Below are positions 8,373 through 28,364 of a DNA stretch of 37,227 nucleotides, piece by piece. Numbering within the stretch: the stretch's first letter is position 1; each line of letters begins with the position of its first letter. The position numbers and the translations under genes were made by a program. The notes under the pieces are model-generated. The model saw nothing but the letters and a program-made list of their open reading frames with translations, made no database searches and was not told where the DNA came from. Source of the stretch: a virus. Location of the stretch: IMG/VR virus record IMGVR_UViG_3300029955_000077, one strand, 5' to 3'.

Positions 8373-8376
8373 TTTT

Positions 8377-11547: not shown

Positions 11548-11631
11548 TATGATGGTAATTCTTAACAACACGCTCACCACGCTTCACCTCAGACCTAAAC
11601 GCTAAATTTCCGCGTTCAAAAATCTCTAAAT

Positions 11632-11703: not shown

Positions 11704-11717
11704 CCAAAAATTTTAAT

Positions 11718-11790: not shown

Positions 11791-11799
11791 CCAAACTTT

Positions 11800-11872
11800 G
11801 GGTGTATCGTCTAATGGCTAAGACCCCGATCTTTTAAATCGGCCGATTTCGGTTCGAGTCCGAATGCACCCA
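11800..11872 (+). tRNA. tRNA-Lys (anticodon UUU), copy 2
   Basis: Acceptor GGGTGTA/TGCACCC, D-arm GTCT-AATGGCTA-AGAC, anticodon stem CCGAT/ATCGG with loop CTTTTAA, T-arm TTCGG-TTCGAGT-CCGAA, CCA encoded. Confidence 0.7.
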
Positions 11873-11961
11873 CCAAATATTCTACTTGACAAATTCCCTT
11901 AAAACCTCTTAAAGTAAAAATAGGTAACCGAAACCTCGTCAGACCAACCGGAGATGTTTTA

Positions 11962-12473: not shown

Positions 12474-13790
12474 ATGATGAAAAAAGAAATGACCCTTTTG
12501 GGTCTAGTCGCCGCTACGTATTTTATGGTAAGCGGAGGCCCGTACGGTCTAGAAGACCTAATTGCTCAAACTGGTTACGGATGGGGAATACTCATTCTTT
12601 GCTTAGTGCCCTTCCTGTGGGCACTGCCAACCGCTATGATGGTTGGTGAACTCGCCTCTGCGATACCGAATCGCGGGGGTTTTTATATTTGGGTGCAACG
12701 TGCCCTTGGAAAATTTTGGGGATTCCAGGAAGCTTGGCTTTCATTAGCGGCTTCCATATTTGATATGGGAATCTACCCGCTACTTTTTATTTCTTACCTG
12801 GGTGTATTGGCTCCAAGTTTCACCGCAGGGTGGCACGGCTCGCTTATAGCAACGGCTCTAATCGCTGTTTGCGTATTGTGGAACCTTCGGGGTGCCAAAG
12901 CTGTAGGAAACGGCTCTGTGGCGTTAGGAGCCCTTATGGTGAGCCCTTTTGTGATTATCACCCTAGCAGCTCTCCGACACGCCCATCTGACCCATGTTAC
13001 GGGTCATCCTCACGCCGTCAGTCTTATGGGCGGTATTATGGTCGCTATGTGGAACTTCATGGGTTGGGATAACGCCAGCACCATAGCCACAGAAGTCAAA
13101 AAACCTCAACGAACCTACCCCATCGCCATGATGGTGACTATGCTGTTGATTGTTGGAAGCTATATTCTCCCCGTAGCAGCGTCTTGGTATCTGGGAGTAC
13201 CCCTGTCTGCCTGGTCAACAGGGAGTTGGGCGACTATTGGTGAAATCATCGCGGGTTCTTGGGTACGAGACGCCATTGTACTGGGTGGAATGATCAGTGC
13301 AGCGGGGATGTTGAACTCCCTCATGATGAGCTATTCTCGTATTCCCCCAGCGCTGGCTGAAGATCATTATCTGCCTCGCATATTCACAAAAATAAATGCA
13401 GTGTCAGTTCCCATGATAGCTTTATTTGCCTTGGCGACAGTTTGGGCAACAGCGTTCGGTTTGAATTTTGACCGTCTGGTGATGCTGGATATTTTACTTT
13501 ATGGAACGAGTCTTATTCTGGAGTTTATCGCTTTAGTGGTATTGCGTTGGAAAGAACCAGATTTGCCTCGACCTTTTCGTGTGCCTGGGGGAAAATTGGG
13601 CGCTATCTTGGTAGGAGTTTGCCCAACGATACTTCTCTTCGCGGCCGGTATTTTTGGGGATCATAACGGACTATTGCTAGGCTTAGGCATGATTCTATCC
13701 GGGGTGGGTGCTTGGTGTGGAATTCATGGATTTCGTGCCGCTAAATATGAAAAAATCGCTCCCACTTTCTCAACTACCACGATCCCCTAA
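12474..13790 (+). CDS. APC-family amino-acid/polyamine permease (about 12 transmembrane segments)
   Basis: Hydrophobic throughout. The GGPYGLE and GELASAIPNRGGFYIWVQRALG motifs are typical of APC transporters. AAAGG Shine-Dalgarno site. Confidence 0.75.
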   Translation: MMKKEMTLLGLVAATYFMVSGGPYGLEDLIAQTGYGWGILILCLVPFLWALPTAMMVGELASAIPNRGGFYIWVQRALGKFWGFQEAWLSLAASIFDMGIYPLLFISYLGVLAPSFTAGWHGSLIATALIAVCVLWNLRGAKAVGNGSVALGALMVSPFVIITLAALRHAHLTHVTGHPHAVSLMGGIMVAMWNFMGWDNASTIATEVKKPQRTYPIAMMVTMLLIVGSYILPVAASWYLGVPLSAWSTGSWATIGEIIAGSWVRDAIVLGGMISAAGMLNSLMMSYSRIPPALAEDHYLPRIFTKINAVSVPMIALFALATVWATAFGLNFDRLVMLDILLYGTSLILEFIALVVLRWKEPDLPRPFRVPGGKLGAILVGVCPTILLFAAGIFGDHNGLLLGLGMILSGVGAWCGIHGFRAAKYEKIAPTFSTTTIP

Positions 13791-14694: not shown

Positions 14695-15047
14695 TGCTTA
14701 CTGAAGAAATTCGAGTTTTCAATTCCGATATTCAAACTTACTATTATCTTCACATTCGTAAAGATAGAGTACAGGCTTTTTATAGCCTTATAGCACAAGA
14801 ACGACACCCAGCACGGGTTTCCTCCATGCCTGGGTTAAGCTGGGCTGCTATCTCTGGTTTGGATGCTATTTTTGAACGCCGACCTTTAAAATTTCCCGTC
14901 TACGATATCTTACATTGGTTTTGTGATAACGCCCTTACTTACGCCCCACAATTTGATCCTCCACTTACCCAAGCGGAAATAGAACATGCTTTAGAGCGAT
15001 TCGCAACTCTATATCCCCCTGATGTTTTAACTGAGAATAGAGTATGA
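14694..15047 (+). CDS. hypothetical protein (117 aa)
   Basis: ATG ORF. Confidence 0.45.
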   Translation: MLTEEIRVFNSDIQTYYYLHIRKDRVQAFYSLIAQERHPARVSSMPGLSWAAISGLDAIFERRPLKFPVYDILHWFCDNALTYAPQFDPPLTQAEIEHALERFATLYPPDVLTENRV

Positions 15048-15553
15048 ACTATCAAAATAAACTTCAAAAAATACAAAAAGAGTTTGTGCTGGGAATAAAA
15101 GATAAATTCACCTGTATGACTAAATTTGAGCAAGTTTTATGGGAATACGGTCTTCTACCAAAACAAGAAGAGTTAGATAGGGAAATGTCTAATGAACATT
15201 TTTCTCGCTTGATACAAATGGCTATGGAACATACAGATACTCATTCAGATCGAGATCCTGAAAATAGTGAAGAATTGGATAATGAATACGCAGCGGCTTT
15301 TTATTCTGTAAGAGTTTGCCCAATTTGTCATATTACGCAATCCCGTCCATTAGTTGGTAGCGTGAGTGATTTAGCTCGAAAAATAACTGCATTAAACCCT
15401 CCTCGTTGTGAACGCTGCGCCATTGATTGGATGAAAAAACATCTAGAGAATTCCCCAAAAGGTGAAAATGTAGATTTGATAAAACCACTTAGCAAAGAAG
15501 AGAAAAAATTTTTTGATGAGTATGAGAAGGAAATGGAAGACTTTGAGGTTTAG
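15044..15553 (+). CDS. hypothetical protein with a C-terminal CxxC...CxxC zinc-binding motif
   Basis: ATGA overlap with the upstream gene. Motif CPICH...CERC. Confidence 0.5.
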   Translation: MNYQNKLQKIQKEFVLGIKDKFTCMTKFEQVLWEYGLLPKQEELDREMSNEHFSRLIQMAMEHTDTHSDRDPENSEELDNEYAAAFYSVRVCPICHITQSRPLVGSVSDLARKITALNPPRCERCAIDWMKKHLENSPKGENVDLIKPLSKEEKKFFDEYEKEMEDFEV

Positions 15554-15777
15554 TGGTATTATTATGGTATATGAATATGAATTTCACTGGATTCATGCAA
15601 GTCATTCCTAAGCCCACGCACTGGTGGCGGCGTCCACACCAAATACATTTTTCTTTGTGGCCAGCTTGGCTAGCTCAAGCATTATGCCCGCATAAAGTCA
15701 AAACTTATTTCACTGATGATCAATGGCGCTGTGATGATTGTTTCAAATTCAATTTCCATCAAAAGGAAGACAAATAA
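15553..15777 (+). CDS. hypothetical small Cys/His protein (74 aa)
   Basis: ORF whose stop overlaps the next start in a TAATG arrangement. Confidence 0.4.
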   Translation: MVLLWYMNMNFTGFMQVIPKPTHWWRRPHQIHFSLWPAWLAQALCPHKVKTYFTDDQWRCDDCFKFNFHQKEDK

Positions 15778-16871
15778 TGATTCACTCCCTTATTTCGGTT
15801 ACAGAATCTACATCAATAGAAAGACGAAAAAATAATGTTATAGGTGCAGTTTTTGGACAAGCCATTGGCGATGCTATAGGACATCCGGTGGAGTTTAAAA
15901 AAACTCATTATGTTGTAGACCTAGATATCCCCAATCAATTTACAGATGACACACAAATGTTTTGTGCTTTGGGTGAGGCGTTAATTGAAGGGAAACCCCA
16001 TGAAATGGAAGATGTATTCATGGATGTTCTTACTAAGAAGTTTGTTGAATGGCGTACAAATCCTTTAGGCGGTAATCATCGTGCTCCAGGGGGTACTTGT
16101 ATGGAAGGAGTTCGAAAATTAGGTGCAAAAGTTCCTTGGACAAAATCTGGAGCTCTAAATGGTAAAGGTAATGGAACGGCGATGCGTAGCGGTGTCGTAG
16201 GGGCGATGTACTGGAAGAATCCTAATTATGCTTTTCGTATAGGAGCTTTGCAAAGCGTCAACACCCACAATAATCTAGAAGCGATATTAGGCGGGGGAAC
16301 AGTTTCTTATCTTGTAGCAGCGGCTATTAATGGTATGAGGTTTTCTATCGCCATATCAAATGTTTTGATGCTCTGTTCTCAATTTCTTAATCCATCTGTT
16401 ATAGCTACTTATCCTCAAAATGTAGCATTCAATGATCTGCGTAAAGGTCAGAGTCCGTGGAAAACCGTAGCAAAATTCGGCTCCGCATTTGCGTTGGGTA
16501 TCTCAGATATACAGGTCGGTGAATTCGCTAAATTCAATGGAGATGATTTTTCTGTAGTGCCAGCGGTATCCGCCGCTATTTTTTACAATACTAGATTCGC
16601 AAATTCAGGTTATGAACAAACAGTGTTAAACGCCGCCAATTTTGGAGATGACGCGGATACTATAGCAGCTATTAGTGGGACTATCGCCGGAGCTAGACAC
16701 GGCGTGGATGGTATACCTACATCATGGGTAGAGAATATCGAACAAAGTGAGTACCTCAGGGATTTCTCAGACCGTTTATGGGAAGCCAGTCTTGCCGCAA
16801 ATGTAACTGTTGATAATGAAACTCCAGTTGACACGGATAGTCTACTGGATATGGATGAAATCGAATTTTAA
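15777..16871 (+). CDS. ADP-ribosylglycohydrolase (ARH/DraG family)
   Basis: AAGGAAGA Shine-Dalgarno site. Motifs GAVFGQAIGDAIGHPVEF, TDDTQM and GDDADTIAAISGTIAGARHG match the ARH-family hallmark motifs. Confidence 0.8.
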   Translation: MIHSLISVTESTSIERRKNNVIGAVFGQAIGDAIGHPVEFKKTHYVVDLDIPNQFTDDTQMFCALGEALIEGKPHEMEDVFMDVLTKKFVEWRTNPLGGNHRAPGGTCMEGVRKLGAKVPWTKSGALNGKGNGTAMRSGVVGAMYWKNPNYAFRIGALQSVNTHNNLEAILGGGTVSYLVAAAINGMRFSIAISNVLMLCSQFLNPSVIATYPQNVAFNDLRKGQSPWKTVAKFGSAFALGISDIQVGEFAKFNGDDFSVVPAVSAAIFYNTRFANSGYEQTVLNAANFGDDADTIAAISGTIAGARHGVDGIPTSWVENIEQSEYLRDFSDRLWEASLAANVTVDNETPVDTDSLLDMDEIEF

Positions 16872-16881
16872 GGAGATAATT

Positions 16882-17604
16882 ATGATCAGCCCACTTCCGG
16901 AAATGCTTGAAACTTTAGGGAAAATGCTAGCACCTGGGATGACAGGAAAATTTCTTGACAGCTTTGCCGCCAATCTCTGCAAACTTCACGATGTAAAGCC
17001 AGCTTTCTTGGGGTATAAACCCCCCAATTTTAGCGGCAAAGAAGGGTTCCCCAATACAATTTGTGTCTCCATAAATGATGAAGTAATTCATGGTATCCCA
17101 TCGGATAGGAAATTTGAGGAAGGAGATGTTATAAAACTTGATATGGGAATCGAGAAAGACGGGGAGTTTGACGATGGAGCGATTACCGTACTTTGTGGTA
17201 CAGTAGATGATGAAGGGCGCATACAAGGGTGCTCTGCGACCGCTAGGAAGCTTGTAGCAGCGACTAAGGAAGCTCTTGCCGCTGGGGTGCAGCAAGCCAA
17301 GGCAGGGAACACAACCCACGATATCGCCAAGGCTGTGGAGACGGTAGCTAAAAATCATGATCTTCATGTAGTTCATGGTTATGGAGGACACGGTATTGGA
17401 AATCAACTACACATGGAACCTCATATCCCGAATGAAGAAGATGGGTCAATCGCAAAAAAATTGGAGTCCGGAACCAGGGTAGCGATCGAACCCATGCTGG
17501 CTACAAATCATGGATTTACTTATGTAGCAGCTGATGGTTGGACGGTAAAGCTTCGTAACGGAGGACTGGCCGCTCATTTTGAGCAGACGGTAGAGATAAA
17601 ATAA
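16882..17604 (+). CDS. map: methionine aminopeptidase, type I
   Basis: AAGGAG site 8 nt before the ATG. Motifs FPNTICVSINDEVIHGIP, GDVIKLDMG, HGYGGHGIG, IEPML and a WT..T.DG...A.FE.T C-terminus match MetAP. Confidence 0.8.
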   Translation: MISPLPEMLETLGKMLAPGMTGKFLDSFAANLCKLHDVKPAFLGYKPPNFSGKEGFPNTICVSINDEVIHGIPSDRKFEEGDVIKLDMGIEKDGEFDDGAITVLCGTVDDEGRIQGCSATARKLVAATKEALAAGVQQAKAGNTTHDIAKAVETVAKNHDLHVVHGYGGHGIGNQLHMEPHIPNEEDGSIAKKLESGTRVAIEPMLATNHGFTYVAADGWTVKLRNGGLAAHFEQTVEIK

Positions 17605-17605
17605 G

Positions 17606-17818
17606 ATGCGTAGTTGTCAATTTGTGGGCTGTGAGAAGGATGCCAAGCACTGGTTTCCTCCTAGTGAGAGTAAGAGATGGGTAAAAGGAATGTGGGTATG
17701 TTCATCTTGTTACGACAAAATAGCCAGTCATTTTAAAGAGTGTTTTAATGGTATAGGTACTGATGGTCAAATAAGTAGAGTAAGAAAATACATTAACAAA
17801 TACGGACTGAGGCTTTGA
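17606..17818 (+). CDS. small Cys-rich protein (70 aa)
   Basis: ATG 2 nt after the MetAP stop. Motif CQFVGC...CSSC. Confidence 0.45.
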   Translation: MRSCQFVGCEKDAKHWFPPSESKRWVKGMWVCSSCYDKIASHFKECFNGIGTDGQISRVRKYINKYGLRL

Positions 17819-17857
17819 TGCTTACCTGCCCGCCAAGTAATAATACTGGATTTTTGG

Positions 17858-18112
17858 ATGAATAACGACGGTGAGAAGCCGCACAAGTGTGATTTCTGGG
17901 GCGAGTATTCCGTCATGGTCTGCAACGAACCAGCACCGTACAAGATGACCTACGTCGATGCTGATATCCAAGTCTGGAAAGCTGACTGGTACTGTAAGCA
18001 CCATTACGAAATCATGGCGGATGTCATTATGAAAGATCGCGACAACAACTCCCGCCAACGCCGTCGAATTGACAGGATGTTGGAGATTAACAATTGGTTT
18101 CAGCATGAATGA
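17858..18112 (+). CDS. hypothetical protein (84 aa)
   Basis: ATG ORF in a GC-rich patch. Confidence 0.45.
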   Translation: MNNDGEKPHKCDFWGEYSVMVCNEPAPYKMTYVDADIQVWKADWYCKHHYEIMADVIMKDRDNNSRQRRRIDRMLEINNWFQHE

Positions 18113-18143
18113 AATGACAAGTTAGTGGAAGAAGAAGGCGCAA

Positions 18144-18629
18144 ATGAAGAGAATTAGCGACGAGAGCGGCGAATCGGCGGGTTGGCGCAATTGGGGACGG
18201 TTGATGTTGTCGCTGATTCCCGCTGCGCTCGGCGGTGCAGCAGTGCTATGGATAATTGCTGGGTTAGGATGGATCGACTTAACCAAAGAGCTACGCATGG
18301 AACGGCGGACTATGCAAAGCGTTGGAATCAGTGTCCTCCCAAAAACACCAATTCAGCTACTTGCGCATGACGGAACATGCCTCAAGATTCAATCATCCTA
18401 CATGGATGGTGACCGTCTTCAATTTTATGCTTTCAACTCTTGCCGCCACTGGCTTTTCAACCCGGCTTTCTACTATCGCGTTAAGGCGCACGATGGCACG
18501 GTTGTGGACAGCCACGAGTGGGCTTTCGATGGGGACAGGGATTTAGGGCCACAGGAACGTAGAGAACAAGTCATTAATCTGGAAAATGATGACAGAGCAG
18601 AACAGGTGGAATTGTGGATGCGAAGGTAG
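18144..18629 (+). CDS. hypothetical membrane-anchored protein (161 aa)
   Basis: Predicted transmembrane segment LMLSLIPAALGGAAVLWIIAGLGWI. Confidence 0.5.
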   Translation: MKRISDESGESAGWRNWGRLMLSLIPAALGGAAVLWIIAGLGWIDLTKELRMERRTMQSVGISVLPKTPIQLLAHDGTCLKIQSSYMDGDRLQFYAFNSCRHWLFNPAFYYRVKAHDGTVVDSHEWAFDGDRDLGPQERREQVINLENDDRAEQVELWMRR

Positions 18630-18670
18630 CCACAAGGTAAATAATAGTAAAAAAAAATACACGCTCTATA

Positions 18671-19092
18671 TGAGTACGGATGGGAAATTGATGGATAAAC
18701 CAAAGCAAGTAACAGAACAAACTTTACGTGCCCAAGCTGCGGAACTTAGAAAATTTTTTATAAAATTGGATGCTTGGGAGAAAGGTCTTCGACAAAGAGA
18801 ACTTCTGTTGAAAAAACAAAAAAGCGAGCATACAGAGCGTAAAAGTGAAAAAGATCAAATGTCCTTTGATTTTGATGTTAGTAAAAAAGGTATACTCAAA
18901 ATGCAAAAAATGTTGGAACCCGGACATTTTAAAGAAGGGGATATGTATGACGGGCTGAAAGAAGAAATATTTAAAAGAGCAAAAGAAAAATACTATAGTC
19001 GCTCAAAACCACCCGTTGGTGATGAGATAGATTTTTTGGAGAAGTTGTTTGATTTAGAAGACCCTCGTAAAGACACAAAGACCCCTACGTAA
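18671..19092 (+). CDS. hypothetical Lys/Glu-rich coiled-coil protein
   Basis: In-frame ATG downstream of the previous gene's stop. The track ORF begins inside the previous gene. Confidence 0.45.
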
Positions 19093-19113
19093 GAAAACAG
19101 TTTTCCCCACGCC

Positions 19114-19148
19114 GGGATCCTGTGCGAAATTAGGATCACCCCCTTTTA
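19114..19148 (+). terminator. possible rho-independent terminator
   Basis: GGGATCC-loop-GGATCaCCC followed by CCTTTTAAT. Confidence 0.35.
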
Positions 19149-19333
19149 ATCTAATATAATTCTGAAACGTGCTCTCCCGTAGGGACAGATGTAAGTTTGG
19201 GTTATGGTTGGTAACTGAAGAAGGGTCATAGGCAAAATCTCCTCTGGACTCAGTATTTGATAAAGTGGGCAAATAAATTGCCCTTACTATCTAAAGGGGT
19301 GTATAGATAGAAAAATAAGGATAATTGATTATT

Positions 19334-20857
19334 ATGGCAAGCGAAAATGATGGTAATGTTGTACTCAAACGTATATTTGGAATGCTGGCTGACAAGGTTC
19401 GCATCTATCAAATTTTAGAAGAAACTGAAGTGCAACGAGACGAATTTGTTTACTGTCAAATTATGCATCAAATTGTTTTTGGTGAAAACGGTTTTACAAA
19501 AACATTAGGGCATGTTTGGGGTATGGTACATGACCCCCGTTTCCAGGAAATAGAAAATTTAATGATTGTAGATCGCCACGCTATTTTCGGTGGTGATGCT
19601 CGATTAGGTAAGCAATACATAAATGACGATGGAACTTTTACTTCTCCTATATCTGATCTGGAGAAGTATTCTGAGATTGTTGGTGAAGGAAGGAATTTTC
19701 ATAATGTTCTTACTCACCCCGATGAAAAATGTCCTCAACGGTTGTGGTTAGAACGAATTCATCGCGGCTTTACAAACATTAAACCTCACTCCACTCTTCA
19801 ATGTATTTGTGCTACCGGTAAAGAAAATCCCACTACATTTAAAGATATGCCCGATGAAATTATATGGGCATTGATTAAGCAAGAATGCCCCAATCGTGGG
19901 TTCAATGCTGACAAAACTCCCAATGCCTACGGTCAATTGATGTATGATCTTATTCGAGCGGATATTATCGGACTTATTCATGATTATGCGGAGACTCCTT
20001 TGATTGACAGTTATGTTTATTTAAGAGATAACGGCATTATTAAGTACACAGAAACAGAATCCGTAGCTTCAATAGACCCGTTTGGTTTAGAAAATCCCAG
20101 AGTTCTTCAAGAACTAGATATATTGGAACAGGCCCTTACTCACCGTGCTACTTTGCGAATGACGGCCTTAAAAATTCTCAAAAAAGCAGGGCTACAAAAT
20201 GAAATCCGTGAGGCTGATTTAACGGATATAGAACGGGATGAATTGTTATGTTTAATATACAGTCATGATTACCCTGATGTTGAAAATACAGATAGTACGA
20301 TGTACAGAGCTGCAATAGATGCTTGGGAAAAACAAATTAAAGAAATTGTTAAAGACTATATTTTATCGGTAATTACAAAAGATTTGAAGGAACGTGAAAC
20401 CGTTCAATTGAATCAATTACAATTAGAGTCTAACGAAGCTGTAGATGGTCTGATGAAAGGAACAATTCAACCTATTAATTCTTACACCGAACCTACGGTA
20501 GAAATTCCTACTGAGCAAGAAGAATCGGAAGTTGTTAAATATGCTCGTATGCTGGAAGCTATTATGGGGAACGAGTTCAAATCCGAACTTTATCTTTTGT
20601 TGATTGAAGCAGAAAGACAAAAAAATACGGCTATTGTAGATTTGTTAACTCCAATATTTCTTACTCCAGATTACCCTTTAGATGAAAAGATTTTTTATAA
20701 TTTCATTGAAAGTATTAGAATAGGTAGTAGAAGTCTGCGAGCGGATCGTCTGGAGGCGATTCGAGGTACGAAGCAAACCGGAATGAACTTAGATCCTGCT
20801 AAGACTACGCAAATCGATGAAGAGTTTCACAGCAAGGATTCACCATTTAGAGGTTAA
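19334..20857 (+). CDS. hypothetical protein (about 507 aa)
   Basis: Long ORF with AAGGA upstream. No recognisable motifs. Confidence 0.6.
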   Translation: MASENDGNVVLKRIFGMLADKVRIYQILEETEVQRDEFVYCQIMHQIVFGENGFTKTLGHVWGMVHDPRFQEIENLMIVDRHAIFGGDARLGKQYINDDGTFTSPISDLEKYSEIVGEGRNFHNVLTHPDEKCPQRLWLERIHRGFTNIKPHSTLQCICATGKENPTTFKDMPDEIIWALIKQECPNRGFNADKTPNAYGQLMYDLIRADIIGLIHDYAETPLIDSYVYLRDNGIIKYTETESVASIDPFGLENPRVLQELDILEQALTHRATLRMTALKILKKAGLQNEIREADLTDIERDELLCLIYSHDYPDVENTDSTMYRAAIDAWEKQIKEIVKDYILSVITKDLKERETVQLNQLQLESNEAVDGLMKGTIQPINSYTEPTVEIPTEQEESEVVKYARMLEAIMGNEFKSELYLLLIEAERQKNTAIVDLLTPIFLTPDYPLDEKIFYNFIESIRIGSRSLRADRLEAIRGTKQTGMNLDPAKTTQIDEEFHSKDSPFRG

Positions 20858-20891
20858 ATGACTACAGACACCCTCTCTTAGAGGGCAATCT

Positions 20892-21233
20892 ATGGCAAAC
20901 TGTTTGCACCTGGAAGTGGATGACGGCTCTGGTTGCGGTGTGAATGTGACAGAGATTAAAGAACCAGCACCAAATGTCGGCAACATCGGTGGAATCGTCA
21001 AATTGATTAATGCGACGGTGAAAACTTATACCCAACTTGTAAGAGAAAATACAGACCCTAAAAACCCCTCACTCCCTCGCCTCCGTCTTATTGGAGGTCA
21101 GTTCGTCCGTATCCCACACAAAAATATCTATAATGATTTGATCGGCCCTTCATATATTGCAGCCAGGGCCTTGGGGTATAGGGGTGGAATCGGCCGCTGG
21201 GCTGACTTGGTTCGAGAAAATATTTCTCTTTAG
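20892..21233 (+). CDS. hypothetical protein (113 aa)
   Basis: ATG ORF. Confidence 0.45.
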   Translation: MANCLHLEVDDGSGCGVNVTEIKEPAPNVGNIGGIVKLINATVKTYTQLVRENTDPKNPSLPRLRLIGGQFVRIPHKNIYNDLIGPSYIAARALGYRGGIGRWADLVRENISL

Positions 21234-21370
21234 CCGAATCCAGTCAACACCCACTAATTCACATGCCACCTTGTAGGGCCCCGTACATACGACCTAAGCA
21301 CAAGTTTACTCTGAGCATCAAAACTTTCCCGGTTATAAGTTGTTGATTTTAAATACTTTAAAAATATCCA

Positions 21371-21396
21371 TTTTCAGTGTTTCCGATGTATACTAG
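21371..21396 (+). promoter_or_regulatory. ttttcagtgtttccgaTGTATACTAggg promoter motif
   Basis: Near-identical to the sequence at 24347-24370 and related to 4244-4260. Confidence 0.5.
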
Positions 21397-21409
21397 GGAT
21401 GGAGGCGAT

Positions 21410-22315
21410 ATGACAAAGAAAAGTAGCTCTGATGTGGCGGCTGATTTGAAAAGTGCAATGGGTTCCGCTGCCGATGCAAAGACTATTCTCGATACACCAG
21501 ATAAGAAAACCGCCAGCCGTTCCACATGGAAGGGTTATATTTCCGCTTTTGGCGTTATGCTGATTCCCGCCGCAACCCTGAAAGCCACTGATGTTGATGC
21601 TATCGAAACCCACATGTACCATAGCGCTGCTTGTCCGAATCGTTTGGTGCAGAAATACACCTGCTCTTGCTGCGACACCGAAGTCCCCAACGCTCGTACA
21701 AACGCCCTTAAGGGTGTAGAAGTGGGGGACAAAGTCATTACTCTCACTCAAGCGGAATTAGACGCTCAGAAGCCCACTAGTGACAAAATTCTCAAAGTCA
21801 CCGAGTTTGTTCCCGCTGATGCGATTGATGTTACCTACTACGAATCCAGCGAATACATCGCCGCTGATAAGGGTGGGGAAAAAGCCTTCGCCACATTCCA
21901 GCAAGCCTTGGCGCAAACGGGGCGTATCGCTATCGGCACCTTCGTAAGCCGCGGTCACCAATACACTGTTGCACTTCGCCCCAAGGGTCAGTATGGTATC
22001 GTCATGTCTTATTTGTTCGCGGAATATGAAGTTCGCAACTGCGGCAAGTGGACGCCTGTTGTTGTCAATCCGGCAGAAGTTGATTTGGTCAAGCAGCTTA
22101 TGACTGAAACCGAACTGGCAAAAGAAGTATTCACCCCCGCCGCCTATGACCCCTATCTCTCTGGCGTGCGCAAGATGATTGCTGCTAAGGCAAATGGTAC
22201 GGAAGTTTGCACCCCGGCTGCGGACGAAGTTCCCAAGGCTACGGATGATTTGTTGGCGGCGTTGAAAGCTACCCTGGAGCAGCAAAAGGCAAAGGCTGCA
22301 AAGGCTGGTGTATAA
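21410..22315 (+). CDS. ku: Ku-like DNA end-binding protein
   Basis: GGAGG site 4 nt before the ATG. WKGYISAFGVMLIPAATLKAT, EFVPADAIDVTYYESSEYIAAD and QQALAQTGRIAIGTFVSRGHQYTVALR parallel the conserved blocks of bacterial Ku. Lys/Ala-rich C-terminal tail. Confidence 0.8.
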   Translation: MTKKSSSDVAADLKSAMGSAADAKTILDTPDKKTASRSTWKGYISAFGVMLIPAATLKATDVDAIETHMYHSAACPNRLVQKYTCSCCDTEVPNARTNALKGVEVGDKVITLTQAELDAQKPTSDKILKVTEFVPADAIDVTYYESSEYIAADKGGEKAFATFQQALAQTGRIAIGTFVSRGHQYTVALRPKGQYGIVMSYLFAEYEVRNCGKWTPVVVNPAEVDLVKQLMTETELAKEVFTPAAYDPYLSGVRKMIAAKANGTEVCTPAADEVPKATDDLLAALKATLEQQKAKAAKAGV

Positions 22316-22337
22316 GGCTGCAAAGGCTGGTGTATAA
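22294..22337 (+). repeat. 22-bp perfect tandem duplication (ggctgcaaaggctggtgtataa x2) across the Ku stop codon
   Basis: Seen directly in the sequence. Confidence 0.8.
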
Positions 22338-22433
22338 ATGGATCAGGTCAATACCCCAACCCCAACGCCTAAAGGCGGATTTAGTATGCCGCATACCCAT
22401 GCGACTCGTTAAGAAAGGCACCAAGGAGAAACT

Positions 22434-23108
22434 ATGACAATCTACTATAAACTCACGACGCAAGAAGGAAAGACTCGTAATGAAACTCAATGGGGAGAGA
22501 ATGTAACTCATGAGGCTACGGGAGACATTAAACAAGACTTGTGCTCCAATGCATGGATACATGCGTACACTCATCCCCTACTCGCTGTGCTTATGAACCC
22601 GGTTCATGCAGATATAGAGAATCCCATCCTTTGGGAAGGAAAGGGAGAAGGGGAGGCAAAATTCGAACCCCTTAAATGCGGGTTCAGGAAATTCACTACC
22701 CTAAAAAAAATCCCATTACCAGAAGTAACTGATGTTCAAAAGGTAGCCTTTGGTATTCTCTGTGCTAAAGAAGTTTACAAAGACTCAAGTTGGAATCAGT
22801 GGGCAGATAAATGGTTAAGCGGGGAAGATCGCACTAAATCTTCTGCTAATGCTGCTGCTGATGCTGCTGCTTATGCTGCTGCTGCTGCTGATGTTGTTGC
22901 TTATTATGCTGCTAATGCTGCTGATGCTTATGCTGCTTCTGATGCTGCTTCTTCTGCTGCTAGGGCTGCTGCTAATGCTGCTTATGCTGCTGCTAATGCT
23001 GCTGATGCTTATGCTGCTTCTGATGCTGCTTCTTCTGCTGCTTCTAAAGCTACGGGCAAAGAATTAGATTTTGTTTCGATTGCCCTTAAAGCCATGGAGG
23101 GGAAATGA
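22434..23108 (+). CDS. hypothetical protein with a C-terminal Ala-rich imperfect repeat region
   Basis: AAGGAG Shine-Dalgarno site. GCT-rich imperfect tandem repeats at 22840-23050 encode the motif AANAADAYAASDAASSAA. Confidence 0.6.
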   Translation: MTIYYKLTTQEGKTRNETQWGENVTHEATGDIKQDLCSNAWIHAYTHPLLAVLMNPVHADIENPILWEGKGEGEAKFEPLKCGFRKFTTLKKIPLPEVTDVQKVAFGILCAKEVYKDSSWNQWADKWLSGEDRTKSSANAAADAAAYAAAAADVVAYYAANAADAYAASDAASSAARAAANAAYAAANAADAYAASDAASSAASKATGKELDFVSIALKAMEGK

Positions 23109-23138
23109 TGAGTAAACAGGGTACGGGTTGGAGGGTCT

Positions 23139-23420
23139 ATGCCACATAAAACGAGTCTCGCTTCCTCCCCCGCCCTAAATGACGGGGCATCCGCTCGACA
23201 GAATCAGGTGAAAAAACAGTGGGGAGAGATTTACCGACTTGTTGCTGTGCGCGAGATGTTGATTAAGCCTATGCTGACTAGCAAGGATCATCAGCTACGA
23301 GAAGAGGAGTACCAAATCGTAGATTTGATTCTGGGGATCAATAGGAAAATTGGCGCTTTGGGAGTATTTAATCCCGCCGCACTCACATCTGAAATGGCGA
23401 AGCAGGAACTTGGGCAATGA
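23139..23420 (+). CDS. hypothetical protein (93 aa)
   Basis: ATG ORF. Confidence 0.4.
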   Translation: MPHKTSLASSPALNDGASARQNQVKKQWGEIYRLVAVREMLIKPMLTSKDHQLREEEYQIVDLILGINRKIGALGVFNPAALTSEMAKQELGQ

Positions 23421-23770
23421 AGATCACTAGATCACTCACTAAAGCACAACAGCAAGTGTTATTCAATATATCGATAGGATTTCCTTTCTGTGAATATCTA
23501 ACACCGGAAAGAACGAGCAGGTTTTTTCGTACTTTGGGAGAGAATATTCCGGCTCGATTGAATTACATTATTACCCTTGACACGGCTGGTAAACGAGTTT
23601 CATATAAGACATTTTTAGCTTTATTCAAGAGAAACCTTATTGCTCCCAGTAAGTACAAAGAAAGTCCATCCCCACAGGATGGCATCACCCAATTTTATTT
23701 AACGGAATTGGGGAGGCAGGAAGTTAACCGAAAAGTGAATTTCAAAATCCCTATTAGGAGAACCGAGTAA
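23417..23770 (+). CDS. hypothetical protein (117 aa)
   Basis: ATGA overlap with the upstream gene. Confidence 0.45.
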   Translation: MKITRSLTKAQQQVLFNISIGFPFCEYLTPERTSRFFRTLGENIPARLNYIITLDTAGKRVSYKTFLALFKRNLIAPSKYKESPSPQDGITQFYLTELGRQEVNRKVNFKIPIRRTE

Positions 23771-23922
23771 TGCCCCAACAATGGGAGAGATTACCCCCAG
23801 ATGAAGAAGCAGGAACCCCTGCTTTGTTTCCCCCAGAATCAGACCTTTGCAGAGAATGTGACGGCACCGGAGTGCTGTATGGACAGCTCTGTAAAAAATG
23901 TGGCGGCAAAGGGGAAATTTAG
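23770..23922 (+). CDS. small zinc-finger protein with a DnaJ-like CxxCxGxG motif (50 aa)
   Basis: TAATG overlap with the previous stop. Motifs CRECDGTG and CKKCGGKG. Confidence 0.4.
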   Translation: MPQQWERLPPDEEAGTPALFPPESDLCRECDGTGVLYGQLCKKCGGKGEI

Positions 23923-23954
23923 CCAAAACCCGTGTTTTGGATGTATACTAAGGT

Positions 23955-24326
23955 ATGAGCCCATCTCAGGAACGAGTCTATTTGGACGCTGAGCGAGAAG
24001 AAGGCATCGCTGAACTTCGTAACGACCCCGCGTACAATTTTGCGGAGCCAGAGTGCATAGTTCCCTCAAAATATCATCAATACTTCGTTGACTACGGGCG
24101 CTGCTTGTATGACAAGCTCCCGCTTCGCCAAGAAATGCACGCGTTCAATCACTACAAAAAATTTCACTGGCACAAGTACCCTCGATACCTTGCGTACCAG
24201 GGCGGTACTTGGCATGAAGTTTCTATAGGTGCTTATTTGGCTGCGAAGTTTGGTCATTTAATTCCCGTCGCTATCGTCCACGATCCTAAAAAACCGAAAA
24301 ATAAACGTGCAAAGGCTGTAAAATAA
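23955..24326 (+). CDS. hypothetical protein (123 aa)
   Basis: Preceded by TGTATACTAAGGT, which looks like a promoter plus Shine-Dalgarno site. Confidence 0.55.
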   Translation: MSPSQERVYLDAEREEGIAELRNDPAYNFAEPECIVPSKYHQYFVDYGRCLYDKLPLRQEMHAFNHYKKFHWHKYPRYLAYQGGTWHEVSIGAYLAAKFGHLIPVAIVHDPKKPKNKRAKAVK

Positions 24327-24375
24327 AAGGGTTAGAAAATATCCATTTTCAGTGTTTCCGATGTATACTAGGGAT

Positions 24376-24576
24376 ATGGCAAAGAAAAAAAAGAAAAAAA
24401 GTAGCTCTGACATGGCGGCTGATTTGAAAAGCGCATTGCAGTCGTTAAACAAGATGATTGGCTATGCAAAATACGTCGAAGAAATGGATTGGTGGTATTT
24501 CAGGGAAGAAGTGCAACCGGGTTGGAAAAATGATTTAGCGGAAGCCGAAGCTATTGCGGCAAAGTTACACACTTAA
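24376..24576 (+). CDS. hypothetical small protein whose N-terminus duplicates the Ku N-terminus
   Basis: A copy of the 21371-21396 promoter lies upstream. The first ~20 codons (KKKKKKSSSDMAADLKSAL) parallel Ku's TKKSSSDVAADLKSAM. Confidence 0.5.
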   Translation: MAKKKKKKSSSDMAADLKSALQSLNKMIGYAKYVEEMDWWYFREEVQPGWKNDLAEAEAIAAKLHT

Positions 24577-24583
24577 GGATTCT

Positions 24584-24787
24584 ATGATGACAGACACATT
24601 TACATTTTGTAACCCGGCAGCACGTACAGAGTGGCGCAATGATCACGGGGTGGAGAAATGTGGTGTGGAGTTTGCCTTCACAGAGACAGATGAAGTCTTT
24701 CATGGATTTCCTTTGTTCTACCTGCACATGGAGCGTATCTCCCCGACCAATAAAGCGCTCTTGACAAGGGCGGCAGCAAATGAGTAA
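24584..24787 (+). CDS. hypothetical protein (67 aa)
   Basis: AAGGA site 7 nt before ATG 24584, which follows the upstream stop. Confidence 0.45.
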   Translation: MMTDTFTFCNPAARTEWRNDHGVEKCGVEFAFTETDEVFHGFPLFYLHMERISPTNKALLTRAAANE

Positions 24788-25019
24788 TTTATTTGTTATA
24801 GGGGAAGATGAAAAGCCACAATGCTCCGCTTGCTACAAATTCTTTGAACCGGTGGGGGAATATTTTGAACGGTGTAAAAGCCGAACAAAATTTTCCCCTG
24901 ATTTTCCGAAGTTCGCTGAATCAGATCCTTTTGCATTTTGTTCCGAGAGGTGTGAACAGGCGACAATCGATCAAATGCGAATAACTCGAATTGAGGATGT
25001 CAAACAGTCCGATTTCTAA
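24780..25019 (+). CDS. Cys-rich small protein (79 aa)
   Basis: ATGA overlap. Motif CSAC...C...C.ERC. Confidence 0.45.
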   Translation: MSNLFVIGEDEKPQCSACYKFFEPVGEYFERCKSRTKFSPDFPKFAESDPFAFCSERCEQATIDQMRITRIEDVKQSDF

Positions 25020-25061
25020 AAAATTATCAATCTACCAAGGTCCTTAAAAGAGGTATCCCTT

Positions 25062-25229
25062 ATGTACGATGAAGATGAAGATTTGGATCGTGTAGACCAC
25101 GATTCAGATGATGAAGAAGAATTCGTTGAAGATGATGAAGACGAACTACAGGAACTGGATGTAGACGAACGCGGGCATGTTCGACCACGCCGCCGAAAGT
25201 CCGAAGATCGGGAAGAAGAGGATGTGTGA
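25062..25229 (+). CDS. highly acidic small protein (55 aa, Asp/Glu >45%)
   Basis: AGAGG Shine-Dalgarno site. Sequence MYDEDEDLDRVDHDSDDEEEFVEDDEDELQELDVDE... Confidence 0.5.
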   Translation: MYDEDEDLDRVDHDSDDEEEFVEDDEDELQELDVDERGHVRPRRRKSEDREEEDV

Positions 25230-25528
25230 AAATTTTATTTGTCTTCGCACTGCTGGCATTTTCAGGATTATCAATCTGGAGAATAAAAAACTCAGTTGTT
25301 AGTTATCCGCATACGGGGGCTGCTCATACGGGGGCTGCTCATACGGGGGCTGCTCATACGGGGGCTGCTCTAATTGCACCCCCGAGTTTACCACCATGTC
25401 TAGGCAATTGTGAGTTTTGGGGAGATTTTTCAGCTATTCCGACCCCAGAAATTCGTTCCTCTCCGCTATTTGATTCCATCTGCGTAACAGGAAATCCCTG
25501 CAATCAGCGAAAATTGAACTTTATATAA
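25226..25528 (+). CDS. exported or membrane protein with a 4x PHTGAA repeat
   Basis: GTG start overlapping the upstream stop. Hydrophobic N-terminus MKILFVFALLAFSGLSIW. 15-bp tandem repeats at 25311-25370. Confidence 0.45.
   Translation: MKILFVFALLAFSGLSIWRIKNSVVSYPHTGAAHTGAAHTGAAHTGAALIAPPSLPPCLGNCEFWGDFSAIPTPEIRSSPLFDSICVTGNPCNQRKLNFI
25311..25370 (+). repeat. perfect 15-bp tandem repeat x4 (atacgggggctgctc)
   Basis: Seen directly. It keeps the reading frame and encodes HTGAA. Confidence 0.85.
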
Positions 25529-25723
25529 ACCCAAAAATGTGGTATTATATTGAGTATCAGGATTCAAATGATAAAATTATGGAAGCGGTTTCGAAAATGG
25601 TATCGATGGAAGTTATTCGGTATTATAGAATGTGTAAAGCCAACAGGCACCACCAGCTTGCTAGCAAAAATCTCTAGCGGTATTCATCCAACCTTCAGCA
25701 GAACATACATCAGGAGGTACTAG

Positions 25724-26017
25724 ATGCCAGCAGAAAGTAAGTCTCATTGTGATAAGAAGAAGGTGTGGAGCATCGGTGAAGAATCAGAGCTGTTCGCGGC
25801 TCGTTCTGAGAAAGAGGTACGGGAGTTTTATGTTGAACTAGTCGGGCAAGATGATGCAGCAGAAGCGTTTGAAAGTGACTTCACAGAACGAGATTTGGCA
25901 GAGGAGTGGGAGTTTGATTTTGACGGCGTGAGAAAGACAATGACGCTGGCAGAACTGTTGCGCGATATTCACGCGCATACTGCCATGCCAAATCAGGTTA
26001 GCACGTCTTACAACTAA
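25724..26017 (+). CDS. hypothetical acidic protein (97 aa)
   Basis: Strong AGGAGG Shine-Dalgarno site. Confidence 0.55.
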   Translation: MPAESKSHCDKKKVWSIGEESELFAARSEKEVREFYVELVGQDDAAEAFESDFTERDLAEEWEFDFDGVRKTMTLAELLRDIHAHTAMPNQVSTSYN

Positions 26018-26026
26018 GGGGTAAAT

Positions 26027-26434
26027 ATGAGTCATAAAAATGATCCAGATTATCATGATATAAAAGCTAAAATTCTACTTGAAACCGCAACCCATCTCAA
26101 AACTCTAGTTAAAAACAACTCCAAAGGCAATTTATGTCACGGTGATCAACCAGGTCTCCTAGAAGCCGCCGCAGAGCTGCGTAGGATGGCTTCTAATGCA
26201 CGCCGAGCCCATAAGAAGGTACAAGATGACCGCCGACAGAAGTCGCGCAAGGAAAGCCTGGATAAAAGAGAAAATACGTTGAGCAAGTATCGCAATAAAG
26301 AAGCGGTTGCTTTGGATATCGACACGACAGTATTTGGTGATATTCTCCCGTCTTGTGACGAAGAAGAAAGCTCGCGGGATATAAGAACGTTAAAGCGCCT
26401 TTGGAACAACATCCCAAGACTCAATAGAAATTAG
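26027..26434 (+). CDS. hypothetical basic protein (135 aa)
   Basis: ATG ORF. Confidence 0.5.
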   Translation: MSHKNDPDYHDIKAKILLETATHLKTLVKNNSKGNLCHGDQPGLLEAAAELRRMASNARRAHKKVQDDRRQKSRKESLDKRENTLSKYRNKEAVALDIDTTVFGDILPSCDEEESSRDIRTLKRLWNNIPRLNRN

Positions 26435-26512
26435 GGGGCATAAGCAGCTTGTTTCTGCTACAAGCGACCCATGGCAGCCGCCGCAAATTCAAAAAAAGGA
26501 TGACGACAATCA

Positions 26513-26815
26513 ATGAGATTTTCTTATGACGAAGACGCAGATGTGATGTATATCCGCTTCTCAGAGTCGTCCTCTACCACATCATACTTAGAGAATGACA
26601 ATGGAGACATCCTCCGCTTCGACGAAGCAACTGAGAAACTTGTAGGCGTTACTATCCCTTGGTTCAAGGAAAGAATTCTTAAGGGAGACATTTTAGATAT
26701 TCCAGAAATCGAGGCAATTCCATTTGGTTCGGACATGAGAAAGTTGATAAACTCTAGAACGGTACGATCAAAAAATTCGGCCCTACTAAAGCCGGAGAAT
26801 GAGATTGATTTATGA
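26513..26815 (+). CDS. DUF2283-like small protein
   Basis: N-terminal MRFSYDEDADVMYIRF matches the DUF2283 signature. Confidence 0.5.
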   Translation: MRFSYDEDADVMYIRFSESSSTTSYLENDNGDILRFDEATEKLVGVTIPWFKERILKGDILDIPEIEAIPFGSDMRKLINSRTVRSKNSALLKPENEIDL

Positions 26816-27009
26816 CATTTGAAATCGATCCACCGGAACCATGCCCTGATTGCGGCAGCACACACCATCGCAGCTGCACAATGAGTGGTGTTGGCCCTGA
26901 ATTAGACATAATTCTTGACCCAGATCCTAAATGTGAGTTTTGTCACGGAACAGGGCGGATTTACGCCCTGATCAATGTGCGGTGTTCTTGCACCTATGGA
27001 AATGAATGA
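26812..27009 (+). CDS. zinc-ribbon protein (65 aa)
   Basis: ATGA overlap. Motifs CPDCG and CEFCHGTG. Confidence 0.45.
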   Translation: MTFEIDPPEPCPDCGSTHHRSCTMSGVGPELDIILDPDPKCEFCHGTGRIYALINVRCSCTYGNE

Positions 27010-27096
27010 ATTCGCCGCGCAAAGCAATTCTAGACCCCCTTTTTATACCCATCATCAATACCTGTGGCGCTGCTTTGAAAGGCAGTATTACAGCTT

Positions 27097-27912
27097 ATGT
27101 CCAACTACTACAACGAATACGAACCGCATGCAGCCGCTTGGTTGCGAAATTTAATCAGCGCGGGTCTGTTGCCAAAAGGGGATGTTGATGAACGAAGCAT
27201 TACAGATGTTACAACTAGCGACCTCGCAGGATACACCCAATGTCACTTCTTCGCCGGGATCGGCGGATGGTCCGTCGCCCTCCAGATCGCAGGAGTGCCA
27301 GACGACTACCCAATCTGGACAGGGAGCTGCCCCTGTCAACCCTTCAGCGCCGCACCTGGAGAACGAAAAGGTACTGCCGATAAACGTCACCTCTGGCCTG
27401 TCTGGTCAGGGCTCATCCGCGAGTGTCGCCCTGCAATTTGCTTTGGAGAACAAGTTGAGGCAGCTATTAGGTACGGATGGCTCGATATTGTATCGGCAGA
27501 CTTGGAAGATCAAGGCTACGCCGTCGGGGCGGCGATACTTGGCGCTTGTAGCGTCGGCGCTCCCCACAAGCGACAACGGCTATATTGGGTGGCCGACTCC
27601 CAACGCGTCCCAGCACAATTACTACGAGAACCCGGACGGATGGTTAGCGAGACAGGAACAGCGGAAAAAGGACGGCAAGCAGACGTTCGCGATCAACTTG
27701 GGAATAGCGGCGAAGTTCACTTCTGGGACAGCCCTGAGTGGCTCGCCTGTAGAGACGGGCGACAAAGACCATGTGAACCCGGAGTTAGCCCGCTGGCTAA
27801 TGGGATTCCCAACCGGGTGGACAAATTACGCGCCTACGGGAACTCGATCTGCCCTCCGCTCGCCTCGAAATTCATTCAAGCGGTCCTTGAAGCGAAAGAA
27901 GAAATCCAATGA
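27097..27912 (+). CDS. DNA (cytosine-5)-methyltransferase
   Basis: Motif I FFAGIGGW, motif IV PCQPFS and motif X AYGNSI. The gene lies in a GC-rich patch. Confidence 0.8.
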   Translation: MSNYYNEYEPHAAAWLRNLISAGLLPKGDVDERSITDVTTSDLAGYTQCHFFAGIGGWSVALQIAGVPDDYPIWTGSCPCQPFSAAPGERKGTADKRHLWPVWSGLIRECRPAICFGEQVEAAIRYGWLDIVSADLEDQGYAVGAAILGACSVGAPHKRQRLYWVADSQRVPAQLLREPGRMVSETGTAEKGRQADVRDQLGNSGEVHFWDSPEWLACRDGRQRPCEPGVSPLANGIPNRVDKLRAYGNSICPPLASKFIQAVLEAKEEIQ

Positions 27913-28364
27913 CGACACCGCTTAACCGATCAGTCAATTGCCGTGTATGCGGTGTGCTCATTCCAAAACCACGCTCATCCAACAGGAAGTATTGCAGCGA
28001 TGCACACGCCCAGAAAGGGTTCCGCCTAGACCATCCCGACCATGAAAAGGAAAGGTACCAGAAGGACAAACAGGGATGCAGGGCACGTCATTTGATTCGT
28101 AAGTATAAAGGGTTCACCCAAGCCGACTATGACAAAATGCTTGCCGAACAAAACGGGGCGTGCAAGATATGCGAATGCAGGCAGGAGAAGTGCCTTGACA
28201 TTGACCACGACCACAAGACTGGACGAGTTCGTGGCCTGCTTTGTCACAACTGCAATTTGATGCTAGGAAACGCCCACGACGATCCAGAAACACTCGCCAA
28301 GGCGATTAAATACTTGGCAAGTCGCGGCGGCATCGTGAAGGCAATTATTGACGAGGTGCGGTAA
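27909..28364 (+). CDS. recombination endonuclease VII family protein
   Basis: CKICE...LDIDHDHKTGRVRGLLCHNCNLMLG matches the Endo VII signature. ATGA overlap with the methyltransferase. Confidence 0.8.
   Translation: MTTPLNRSVNCRVCGVLIPKPRSSNRKYCSDAHAQKGFRLDHPDHEKERYQKDKQGCRARHLIRKYKGFTQADYDKMLAEQNGACKICECRQEKCLDIDHDHKTGRVRGLLCHNCNLMLGNAHDDPETLAKAIKYLASRGGIVKAIIDEVR

Follow-up and report, generated by a model that had tools for sequence, protein, structure and literature searches.

A small acidic phage protein with an invariant arginine-rich motif, its predicted exported partner, and a length-variable coding repeat

Introduction

Mobile genetic elements carry acidic proteins that neutralise DNA-targeting defences, and Ocr (T7 gp0.3) and ArdA are familiar examples. 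Both are folded dimers, of about 116 and 165 amino acids (aa) respectively, in which acidic side chains are placed like the phosphates of B-DNA. Here, we describe a locus of two small open reading frames (ORFs) in the IMG/VR virus record IMGVR_UViG_3300029955_000077: ORF1, which encodes an extremely acidic 55-aa protein, and ORF2, which encodes a protein with a signal-like N-terminus and an array of perfect 15-bp coding repeats. Throughout, the window means the whole stretch of DNA analysed (37,227 nt). An earlier note made from the letters of this DNA had described an acidic gene, a following gene whose GTG start lies inside the stop of the first, and four perfect 15-bp coding repeats; every one of these elements was found where the note had placed it, and the description was correct in detail.

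Acidic mimicry is also documented outside the folded Ocr and ArdA dimers. The 237-aa Gp44 protein of phage SPO1, an RNA polymerase inhibitor, combines a folded N-terminal DNA-binding domain with a disordered middle domain (residues 56-122, 57% Asp/Glu) that binds RNA polymerase as a flexible mimic of single-stranded DNA (PMC8208478). T7 gp5.9, a DNA mimic that inhibits RecBCD and MukBEF (PMC9836394; PMC7617805), has an isoelectric point (pI) of 4.0 and is a parallel coiled-coil dimer in a structure in which residues 1-49 were modelled (PMC9836394), an example indicating that a protein of about 50 residues with a pI of 4.0 can be a DNA mimic.

ORF1 belongs to a family of about 100 clusters that carries a nearly unchanging basic motif within a predicted disordered polyanion, and an ORF2-like gene follows the acidic gene in most of the lineages sampled. 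Taken together, the sequence evidence is best explained by a two-gene module conserved within a clade of very large phages of soil or peat.

Results

ORF1 encodes a polyanion of an unannotated family

ORF1 holds 29 Asp or Glu residues among its 55 (52.7%; the earlier note had put the figure above 45%), with a net charge of -21 and a pI of 4.05. Its richest 36-aa window, in the N-terminal arm, contains 23 acidic residues, compared with 14 in the runner-up among all 460 window ORFs (stop to stop, 40 aa or longer), which places the acidity of ORF1 far outside the local background. That ORF1 is a chance reading frame was rejected; both it and ORF2 are real genes.

Index entries for this exact 55-aa sequence occur in 150 blocks of the metagenome collection, from which 22 contigs were read and ten syntenic ones fetched (sister contigs L001-L010). 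A search with the single ORF1 sequence returned two 64-aa relatives that have in common only their composition and an identical ELDVDERGHVRPRRR, a motif scan added a third lineage (L013), and a profile search retrieved 99 clusters, each of 54-82 aa and all with 40-53% Asp/Glu. One further contig (L014) was ignored as an error-ridden copy of the window type. In an alignment of 101 family sequences, E31, L32 and G38 (window numbering) are invariant, D35, H39, R41 and P42 are conserved in at least 97%, and the consensus core reads EETLEELDVD(D/E)RGHVRPRRR. Most members also begin with M(S/A)RFLEDE and end with (I/L)(D/E)PEY-COOH, the terminal P-E-Y being present in about 74-82% of them. Outside a few hydrophobic positions, the acidic arms are conserved mainly as composition. 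The codons of the invariant motif residues differ synonymously between lineages, so that the constraint is on the protein and not on DNA or RNA. ORF1 is a short and divergent member with the defining features of the family, namely a length of 54-82 aa, at least 40% Asp/Glu and the core ELDVD[DE]RGHVRPRR[RK], which spans residues 31-46 of ORF1.

The family occurs on three IMG/VR viral contigs, of 84, 170 and 332 kb, and on metagenome contigs of 436-465 kb. The viral contigs came from a relaxed motif pattern; most members escaped a pattern that demanded Glu at core position 6, and an IMG/VR scan with the first acidic alignment gave no matches. Back-translated motif scans of GTDB, which covered 185,579 species of bacteria and archaea at one genome per species, returned zero matches. 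The family thus appears, from where its sequences fall, to be restricted to giant phages. There was no match for the acidic protein in Pfam, PHROGs, PADLOC or NCBIfam (in Pfam at E<=0.1, neither for ORF1 nor for 47 family members), none at E<=10 in a profile search of PDB sequences, and none in a tblastn search of phages with a family member. We conclude that the family is real and is unannotated in every library searched.

The acidic protein is predicted to be disordered

AlphaFold2 gave ORF1 no helix or strand except for one beta-bridge, V34/V40, around R37-G38. The run was of a monomer with a shallow alignment of four sequences, and the model has a mean predicted local distance difference test score (pLDDT) of 69 and a predicted template modelling score of 0.24; the block of highest score is the conserved motif, at a pLDDT of about 88. 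Foldseek found nothing in the PDB at E<=0.001 for this model. The acidic protein is therefore predicted to be intrinsically disordered. The earlier note had proposed a prediction of structure and charge distribution. The model is without a fold, and the most conserved part of the family is the basic RGHVRPRRR rather than a patterned acidic surface.

Comparison of ORF1 with described acidic proteins

In its predicted disordered segment with more than 50% Asp/Glu, ORF1 has one feature of the flexible polyanionic mimics. It resembles Gp44 in being a phage polypeptide that joins such a region (52.7% against 57% Asp/Glu) to a separate basic or DNA-binding element, and the Gp44 middle domain may be its nearest documented precedent. 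ORF1 differs from Gp44 in length (55 against 237 aa), in having a 9-residue Arg-rich motif in place of a folded domain, and in the lack of any sequence similarity. With T7 gp5.9 it shares a very small size, a pI of about 4 and, in the window, a nearby gene of the Ku/Gam end-binding type; unlike gp5.9, ORF1 has no predicted helix and no match to PHROG or other families, and gp5.9 for its part is without an invariant basic motif.

The earlier note had read the composition of ORF1 as typical of the Ocr/ArdA type, and this assignment did not survive. ORF1 is half to a third the size of those proteins, no fold or secondary structure is predicted for it, its arms are conserved mainly as composition and its best-conserved part is basic. 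Membership of the Ocr (PF08684) or ArdA (PF07275) families found no profile match in Pfam, PHROGs, PADLOC, NCBIfam or the PDB, and a rigid folded structure of their kind was rejected on a model (monomer, four-sequence alignment) without helices or sheets and without a Foldseek match. With no profile match, the wrong size and no predicted fold, ORF1 is not an Ocr or ArdA member.

A small gene with a signal-like N-terminus follows the acidic gene

The start of ORF2 overlaps the stop of ORF1 in a GTGA junction, and a GAGG lies upstream at 25218-25221. In keeping with the signal-like N-terminus reported earlier, ORF2 begins with a hydrophobic stretch (Kyte-Doolittle 17-residue maximum 2.14), and its AlphaFold2 model has only an N-terminal helix (residues 2-25), with the remainder at a pLDDT below 50 and no folded domain.

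In 9 of the 11 lineages sampled, a small ORF2-like protein is encoded 0-27 nt downstream of the acidic gene (L011/L012, L013, L017/L018, L019, L020/L021, L022, where no gene had been called, L023 and L024, besides the window lineage). Outside the window lineage the gap is 7-27 nt, and the Shine-Dalgarno sequence often overlaps the stop. These proteins have a common layout: one or two N-terminal positive charges, a hydrophobic stretch of 16-17 residues in eight of nine homologues (23 in L012), a conserved [RK]-[IV]-x-x-[AS], then V/I/Y and Tyr, a Pro-rich segment and, in most, the C-terminus C-x4-5-C-x-Q-R-x-[VL]-x-F-I-COOH, which can also be written CxxG[DN]PCxQRxLxFI. Small-x-small sites are present in nine of nine homologues (for example SNA↓V, GGA↓V and GEA↓V; VVS↓Y in the window). 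Together with the n/h/c arrangement, these sites would fit a Sec signal peptide, either a cleaved signal or a membrane anchor; a signal peptidase I site at VVS↓YP of ORF2 is possible, and cleavage there would leave the repeat array as the N-terminal tail of the mature protein.

Pairwise similarity across these proteins is faint. The C-terminus of ORF2 aligns with that of the L020 protein (BLASTP E=3e-5) and its N-terminus with that of the L017 protein (E=0.003). A hidden Markov model (HMM) built without the window protein had ORF2 as its unique top match among the 460 window ORFs (E=0.001; next E=1); the first such HMM, from six sequences, had given E=0.11, and the lower value followed the addition of three more positional homologues. 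Direct searches with ORF2 found only near-identical alleles, and an exhaustive HMMER search of 1.84 billion representatives found its own cluster and one spurious match to an HTGAL repeat in a 1196-aa protein. An exact look-up of the 100-aa protein returned no record because alleles differ in copy number. No matches were obtained in tblastn against plasmids or in IMG/VR scans with ORF2 peptides, nor did ORF2 or its homologues match PHROGs or Pfam, or anything meaningful in NCBIfam or PADLOC (best E 0.059). Gene callers missed ORF2 in 8 of the 10 sister contigs as well as in L022. On these comparisons ORF2 is a real gene with relatives beyond the reach of sequence search alone.

Several identities were considered for ORF2 and rejected. 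It has no lipobox, against a lipoprotein or spanin; it has no profile similarity to spanins, holins or T4 Sp, RI and Imm, and the neighbouring ORFs that were scanned included no recognisable endolysin or holin. In general layout ORF2 resembles T4 Spackle and RI and the Pro-rich linkers of TonB and ZipA, with about 65-100 aa, a putative N-terminal signal or anchor, a variable Pro-rich segment and cysteines suited to an extracytoplasmic disulfide; it differs from all of them in having no sequence or HMM similarity and no folded domain in its model.

A 135-aa window protein (26027-26434) has an N-terminal block, DPD[YF]HDI[KR]AKILLE…AAELRRMASNARRAHKK, in common with the gene at 6208-6495 of L015, which directly follows the acidic gene in a lineage without ORF2. 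The shared block indicates that ORF2 and a 97-aa gene (25724-26017) are insertions or deletions in a conserved backbone.

The ORF2 repeat varies in copy number and keeps the frame

Tandem Repeats Finder places the array at 25310..25370 (period 15, 4.1 copies, 100% matches, score 122). The family alignment puts the HTGAA units at the beginning of the linker, just after the conserved Tyr; in other lineages this place is taken by unrelated stretches that differ in length. Identity between the window and the ten sister contigs is 98.4-100% over the segments they share, and yet these contigs carry two copies (L001, L004, L010), three (L003, L005-L008), four (L009, as in the window) or nine (L002), and database alleles P0001-P0007 add five and eight. 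Variant units, HTGTA and one HPGTA, lie on the 5' side of the array, a placement that would be typical of stepwise slippage or unequal exchange. A full ORF2 is kept in every allele seen (2, 3, 4, 5, 8 or 9 units).

The array is thus a coding variable-number tandem repeat (VNTR), polymorphic in copy number among genomes that are more than 99% identical, and the comparison among related phages that the earlier note had proposed bears out its suspicion of an unstable array. Its further suggestion of phase variation does not hold. In classical contingency loci, the units shift the frame or the promoter spacing and thereby switch a gene on or off. The array in ORF2 cannot do so: a unit of 15 bp is five codons, slippage cannot shift the frame, and the outcome is a polymorphism of spacer length. 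With all alleles seen in frame, the array does not behave as a phase-variable contingency locus. In its perfect short repeat, its unit divisible by three and its varying copy number, the array is closer to the in-frame coding VNTRs of bacterial and phage surface proteins.

A second coding VNTR is present in the window, in a 224-aa protein (22434-23108, plus strand) with Ala/Asp/Ser-rich periodic repeats of 9, 12 and 81 bp at 22839-23051; this protein has 212, 224 or 236 aa in sister contigs.

Table 1. Features of the two-gene locus, with positions in the window
Feature	Position	Strand	Description
Shine-Dalgarno-like sequence of ORF1	25047..25054	+	AAAGAGGT, read from the sequence; GAGG at 25050-25053, 8 nt 5' of the ORF1 ATG
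ORF1	25062..25229	+	ATG start, 55 aa, polyanionic, predicted disordered; translation MYDEDEDLDRVDHDSDDEEEFVEDDEDELQELDVDERGHVRPRRRKSEDREEEDV
Invariant family core of ORF1	25152..25196	+	Residues 31-45, ELDVDERGHVRPRRR; from family alignments
ORF2	25226..25528	+	100 aa; GTG start overlaps the ORF1 TGA stop (GTGA)
Putative signal peptide or signal anchor of ORF2	25226..25303	+	Residues 1-26: n-region MK, h-region ILFVFALLAFSGLSIW (16 aa), then RIKNSVVS
Repeat array of ORF2	25310..25369	+	Four perfect 15-bp units, CATACGGGGGCTGCT, encoding (HTGAA)4 after Pro28; in-frame VNTR in the linker
C-terminal motif of ORF2	25481..25525	+	CVTGNPCNQRKLNFI-COOH; family pattern C-x4-5-C-x-Q-R-x-[VL]-x-F-I

The window is a fragment of a very large phage

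When ORFs nested in a longer plus-strand ORF are set aside, nearly all those of at least 90 aa are on the plus strand. ARAGORN identified 15 tRNA genes at 7017-11875 (plus strand), and an Rfam scan of the window returned only tRNAs, including an additional tRNA-like match at 11075-11148. Other window genes encode an RlaP-type nucleotidyltransferase, an ADP-ribosylglycohydrolase, Ku, an orphan C5 methylase, an endonuclease VII and an SNF2 helicase, the last being 52% identical to that of the 308-kb Tunturiibacter phage Tunturi_5. The tRNA array, the likeness of the helicase, the family members on viral contigs and on contigs of 436-465 kb, and the zero matches in GTDB together indicate that the window is a fragment of a very large phage. 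We infer an origin in soil or peat because soil is the recorded source of Tunturi_5, the closest isolate. Megablast of 8-12 kb around the locus found no match in GenBank phages or PLSDB plasmids, and Tunturi_5 has no member of the acidic family within 42 kb of its helicase.

Directly upstream of the acidic gene lies a strain-variable cassette, in which sister strains carry NUDIX and NAMPT, UvrD, PP2C, Ro60 or a TnpB element. The gene content of the region at about 15000-22430 differs among strains that are more than 99% identical: the window, L002 and L005 have an ADP-ribosylglycohydrolase, an M24 peptidase and Ku; L001 has PP2C, UvrD and NUDIX with NAMPT; L003 has an IS605 TnpB element and reversed genes; and L004 has Ro60, a Dam methylase and NUDIX. 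This region looks like an accessory or counter-defence hotspot. Further downstream, the C5 methylase gene (27097-27912) is swapped for unrelated 160-aa or 245-aa genes in some sister strains (region 27097-28364; L002, L005, L007, L009), and the endonuclease VII gene that follows it encodes 134-151 aa and is absent from L006.

In most other lineages, a conserved 170-177-aa Cys-containing protein (…TQCAYCGRVIR.CY…FVIGTC.F…) is encoded directly upstream of the acidic gene (L012 2749-3261, L015 5449-5961, L017 5457-5969, L024 3433-3966); a 79-aa Cys-rich ORF (24780-25019) takes this position in the window. In Tunturi_5 (L026), gp93 (22059-22361) lies directly downstream of the homologous SNF2 helicase gene and is extremely acidic, with 25 Asp/Glu in its best 30-residue window. 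It is without RGHVRPRRR, and so a different, unrelated acidic protein sits near the same helicase.

Other features of the window include, within the tRNA array, four consecutive tRNA-Arg isoacceptors, three tRNA-Lys, two tRNA-Asn and one tRNA with an odd anticodon loop (8961-9031). An 826-aa protein (1684-4164, plus strand) has Major Vault Protein domains (PF11978 MVP_shoulder, E=3.6e-26; PF17795 Vault_3, E=1.8e-8), and such a homologue is unusual in a phage genome; the Ro60/TROVE gene of sister strain L004 (2780-4264) is another eukaryote-like ribonucleoprotein component. A 438-aa amino-acid permease is encoded at 12474-13790 (plus strand; PF13520, E=8e-46), in a region with negative AT skew, unlike the remaining window.

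Discussion

It is tempting to speculate that the acidic protein is a flexible competitor of DNA or RNA for host takeover or counter-defence, and more akin to Gp44 than to the rigid Ocr and ArdA. The conserved hairpin or arginine motif would dock on one specific host or phage target, and the flexible acidic arms would then occupy or repel its nucleic-acid-binding surface. Across the family, the product would be a disordered polyanion of about 55-70 aa, with a net charge of about -21 to -25 and a few short elements fixed by selection. We favour this account, in which the arms, once the protein is docked by its invariant motif, would vie with nucleic acid for a host or defence protein, in a tentative way and with less than even confidence; mimicry of DNA or RNA by a flexible polyanion, or an anti-defence DNA mimic, is possible. 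The neighbourhood, rich in genes of counter-defence type (Ku, an orphan C5 methylase, an ADP-ribosylglycohydrolase and, instead, NUDIX with NAMPT in sister strains), may fit this account weakly.

Several observations weigh against it. The ORF1 model is essentially featureless and was built on four sequences. What the family conserves best is a basic motif, RGHVRPRRR, rather than a patterned acidic surface; hydrophobic positions are conserved as well (F2, L3, LL, YL, TLEEL), and short linear protein-binding motifs fit these as well as mimicry does. ORF1 itself lacks the usual (I/L)(D/E)PEY C-terminus. As for the partner, ORF2 is missing beside the acidic gene in lineages L015/L016 and L025, so the two proteins need not work together; overlapping start and stop junctions are common in this genome, which makes the coupling of the two genes weak evidence by itself; and an Arg or Lys is conserved directly after the ORF2 h-region, which is unusual for cleaved Sec signals.

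The same conserved hydrophobic positions raise another reading, in which the acidic protein would be a disordered adaptor that sequesters a specific protein through short linear motifs (N-terminal FLEDE, central TLEELDVDDRGHVRPRRR and C-terminal (I/L)(D/E)PEY-COOH) and would be no mimic of nucleic acid. We consider this possible, if rather unlikely. The acidic arms retain conserved hydrophobic and aromatic positions, the terminal P-E-Y is widespread in the family, and only the conserved motif reaches a high pLDDT; however, ORF1 ends in EEEDV and has no PEY tip. The C-terminal tip of the single-stranded DNA-binding protein (SSB), DDDIPF-COOH, recruits many enzymes of DNA metabolism. The family ending …DEE(I/L)(D/E)PEY-COOH, which is not found in ORF1, may resemble this tip, and in a variant of the adaptor reading an acidic tail with a terminal aromatic residue would imitate it and hijack SSB-interacting enzymes.

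Perhaps, instead, the two genes form one envelope unit, for instance in superinfection exclusion or lysis timing, with the ORF2-type protein as a periplasmic or membrane effector and the acidic protein as its cytoplasmic regulator or chaperone. In 9 of 11 lineages the two genes have stayed neighbours although the sequence of the second has diverged almost past recognition, they are coupled or separated by no more than about 27 nt, and the second product combines a signal-like N-terminus with a Cys loop suited to an oxidising compartment, in a size and layout comparable to those of T4 Spackle or RI. Yet if the C-terminus of this protein is exported, only 2-11 residues would be cytoplasmic, which makes it difficult to see how they could touch an acidic protein of the cytoplasm directly; the second gene is missing from two lineages; local synteny is conserved more widely, so that adjacency may be simple inheritance; and PHROGs and Pfam gave no match to Sp, RI, Imm, holins or spanins. 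On balance, we regard an envelope unit as unlikely.

It is quite improbable that the acidic gene encodes a structural or packaged protein. Such a protein might be the precursor of an internal peptide or of the prohead core, or might serve basic DNA-binding proteins as counter-ion or chaperone. The gene product is very small and very acidic, as the internal peptides of T4 are acidic, and its L-x-E motifs (TLEEL) may be similar to T4-type prohead protease sites. The neighbours of the gene, however, are genes for tRNA, RNA repair, methylase and helicase together with many small ORFs; none of the window ORFs scanned was recognisable as a head or tail gene, and the acidic gene has no PHROG structural match.

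That the array is an element at the level of DNA (iterons, or binding sites of a regulator or origin) within an ORF, or that ORF2 is no gene at all, is the least credible proposal, because, although the units are identical as DNA and contain a G5 tract and gene callers often overlooked ORF2, eight further lineages encode homologous proteins without the repeat at the corresponding place, ORF2 is conserved in its frame, start and C-terminal motif, the copy number is unconstrained (2-9), the 15-bp spacing is not helically phased, and promoter-like or terminator-like matches in 23000-27200 are no commoner than in shuffled sequence; iterons were rejected.

Alongside a flexible acidic competitor as we favour it, the ORF2-type protein would be translationally coupled to the acidic gene through the GTGA overlap and would be a small Sec-targeted protein whose N-terminus is a cleaved signal peptide or else an anchor, with a Pro-rich spacer and a C-terminal Cys-x-Cys loop ending in a hydrophobic carboxy-terminus. 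It would most likely act in the envelope or periplasm. In the window lineage, the spacer may have gained the 15-bp repeat, which would grow and shrink by slippage or unequal recombination, each unit adding or removing five residues of spacer length without ever breaking the frame. A bolder proposal, which we hold to be improbable as a whole, is that proteins with RGHVRPRRR are a new class of anti-defence or takeover effectors of giant phages, in which a disordered polyanion on an Arg-rich beta-hairpin would block a nucleic-acid-binding host machine, with the exported ORF2-type protein as an envelope arm whose reach is tuned by the 5-residue repeat.

Giant phages carry hundreds of unannotated small genes, and the two gene families defined here are without database annotation and are often missed by gene callers. 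What is new is an acidic family of about 100 clusters with an invariant motif and an apparent restriction to giant phages, a conserved partner with predicted export, and a VNTR of 2-9 copies. The acidic family offers a precise handle, a 20-residue invariant motif inside a disordered polyanion. The VNTR provides a strain marker for this phage population and a natural allelic series of 2-9 units for the effect of spacer length in a small, putatively exported phage protein. If the acidic protein is indeed a flexible mimic of nucleic acid, the concept of the DNA mimic would be widened past rigid folds, and a compact inhibitor would be gained.

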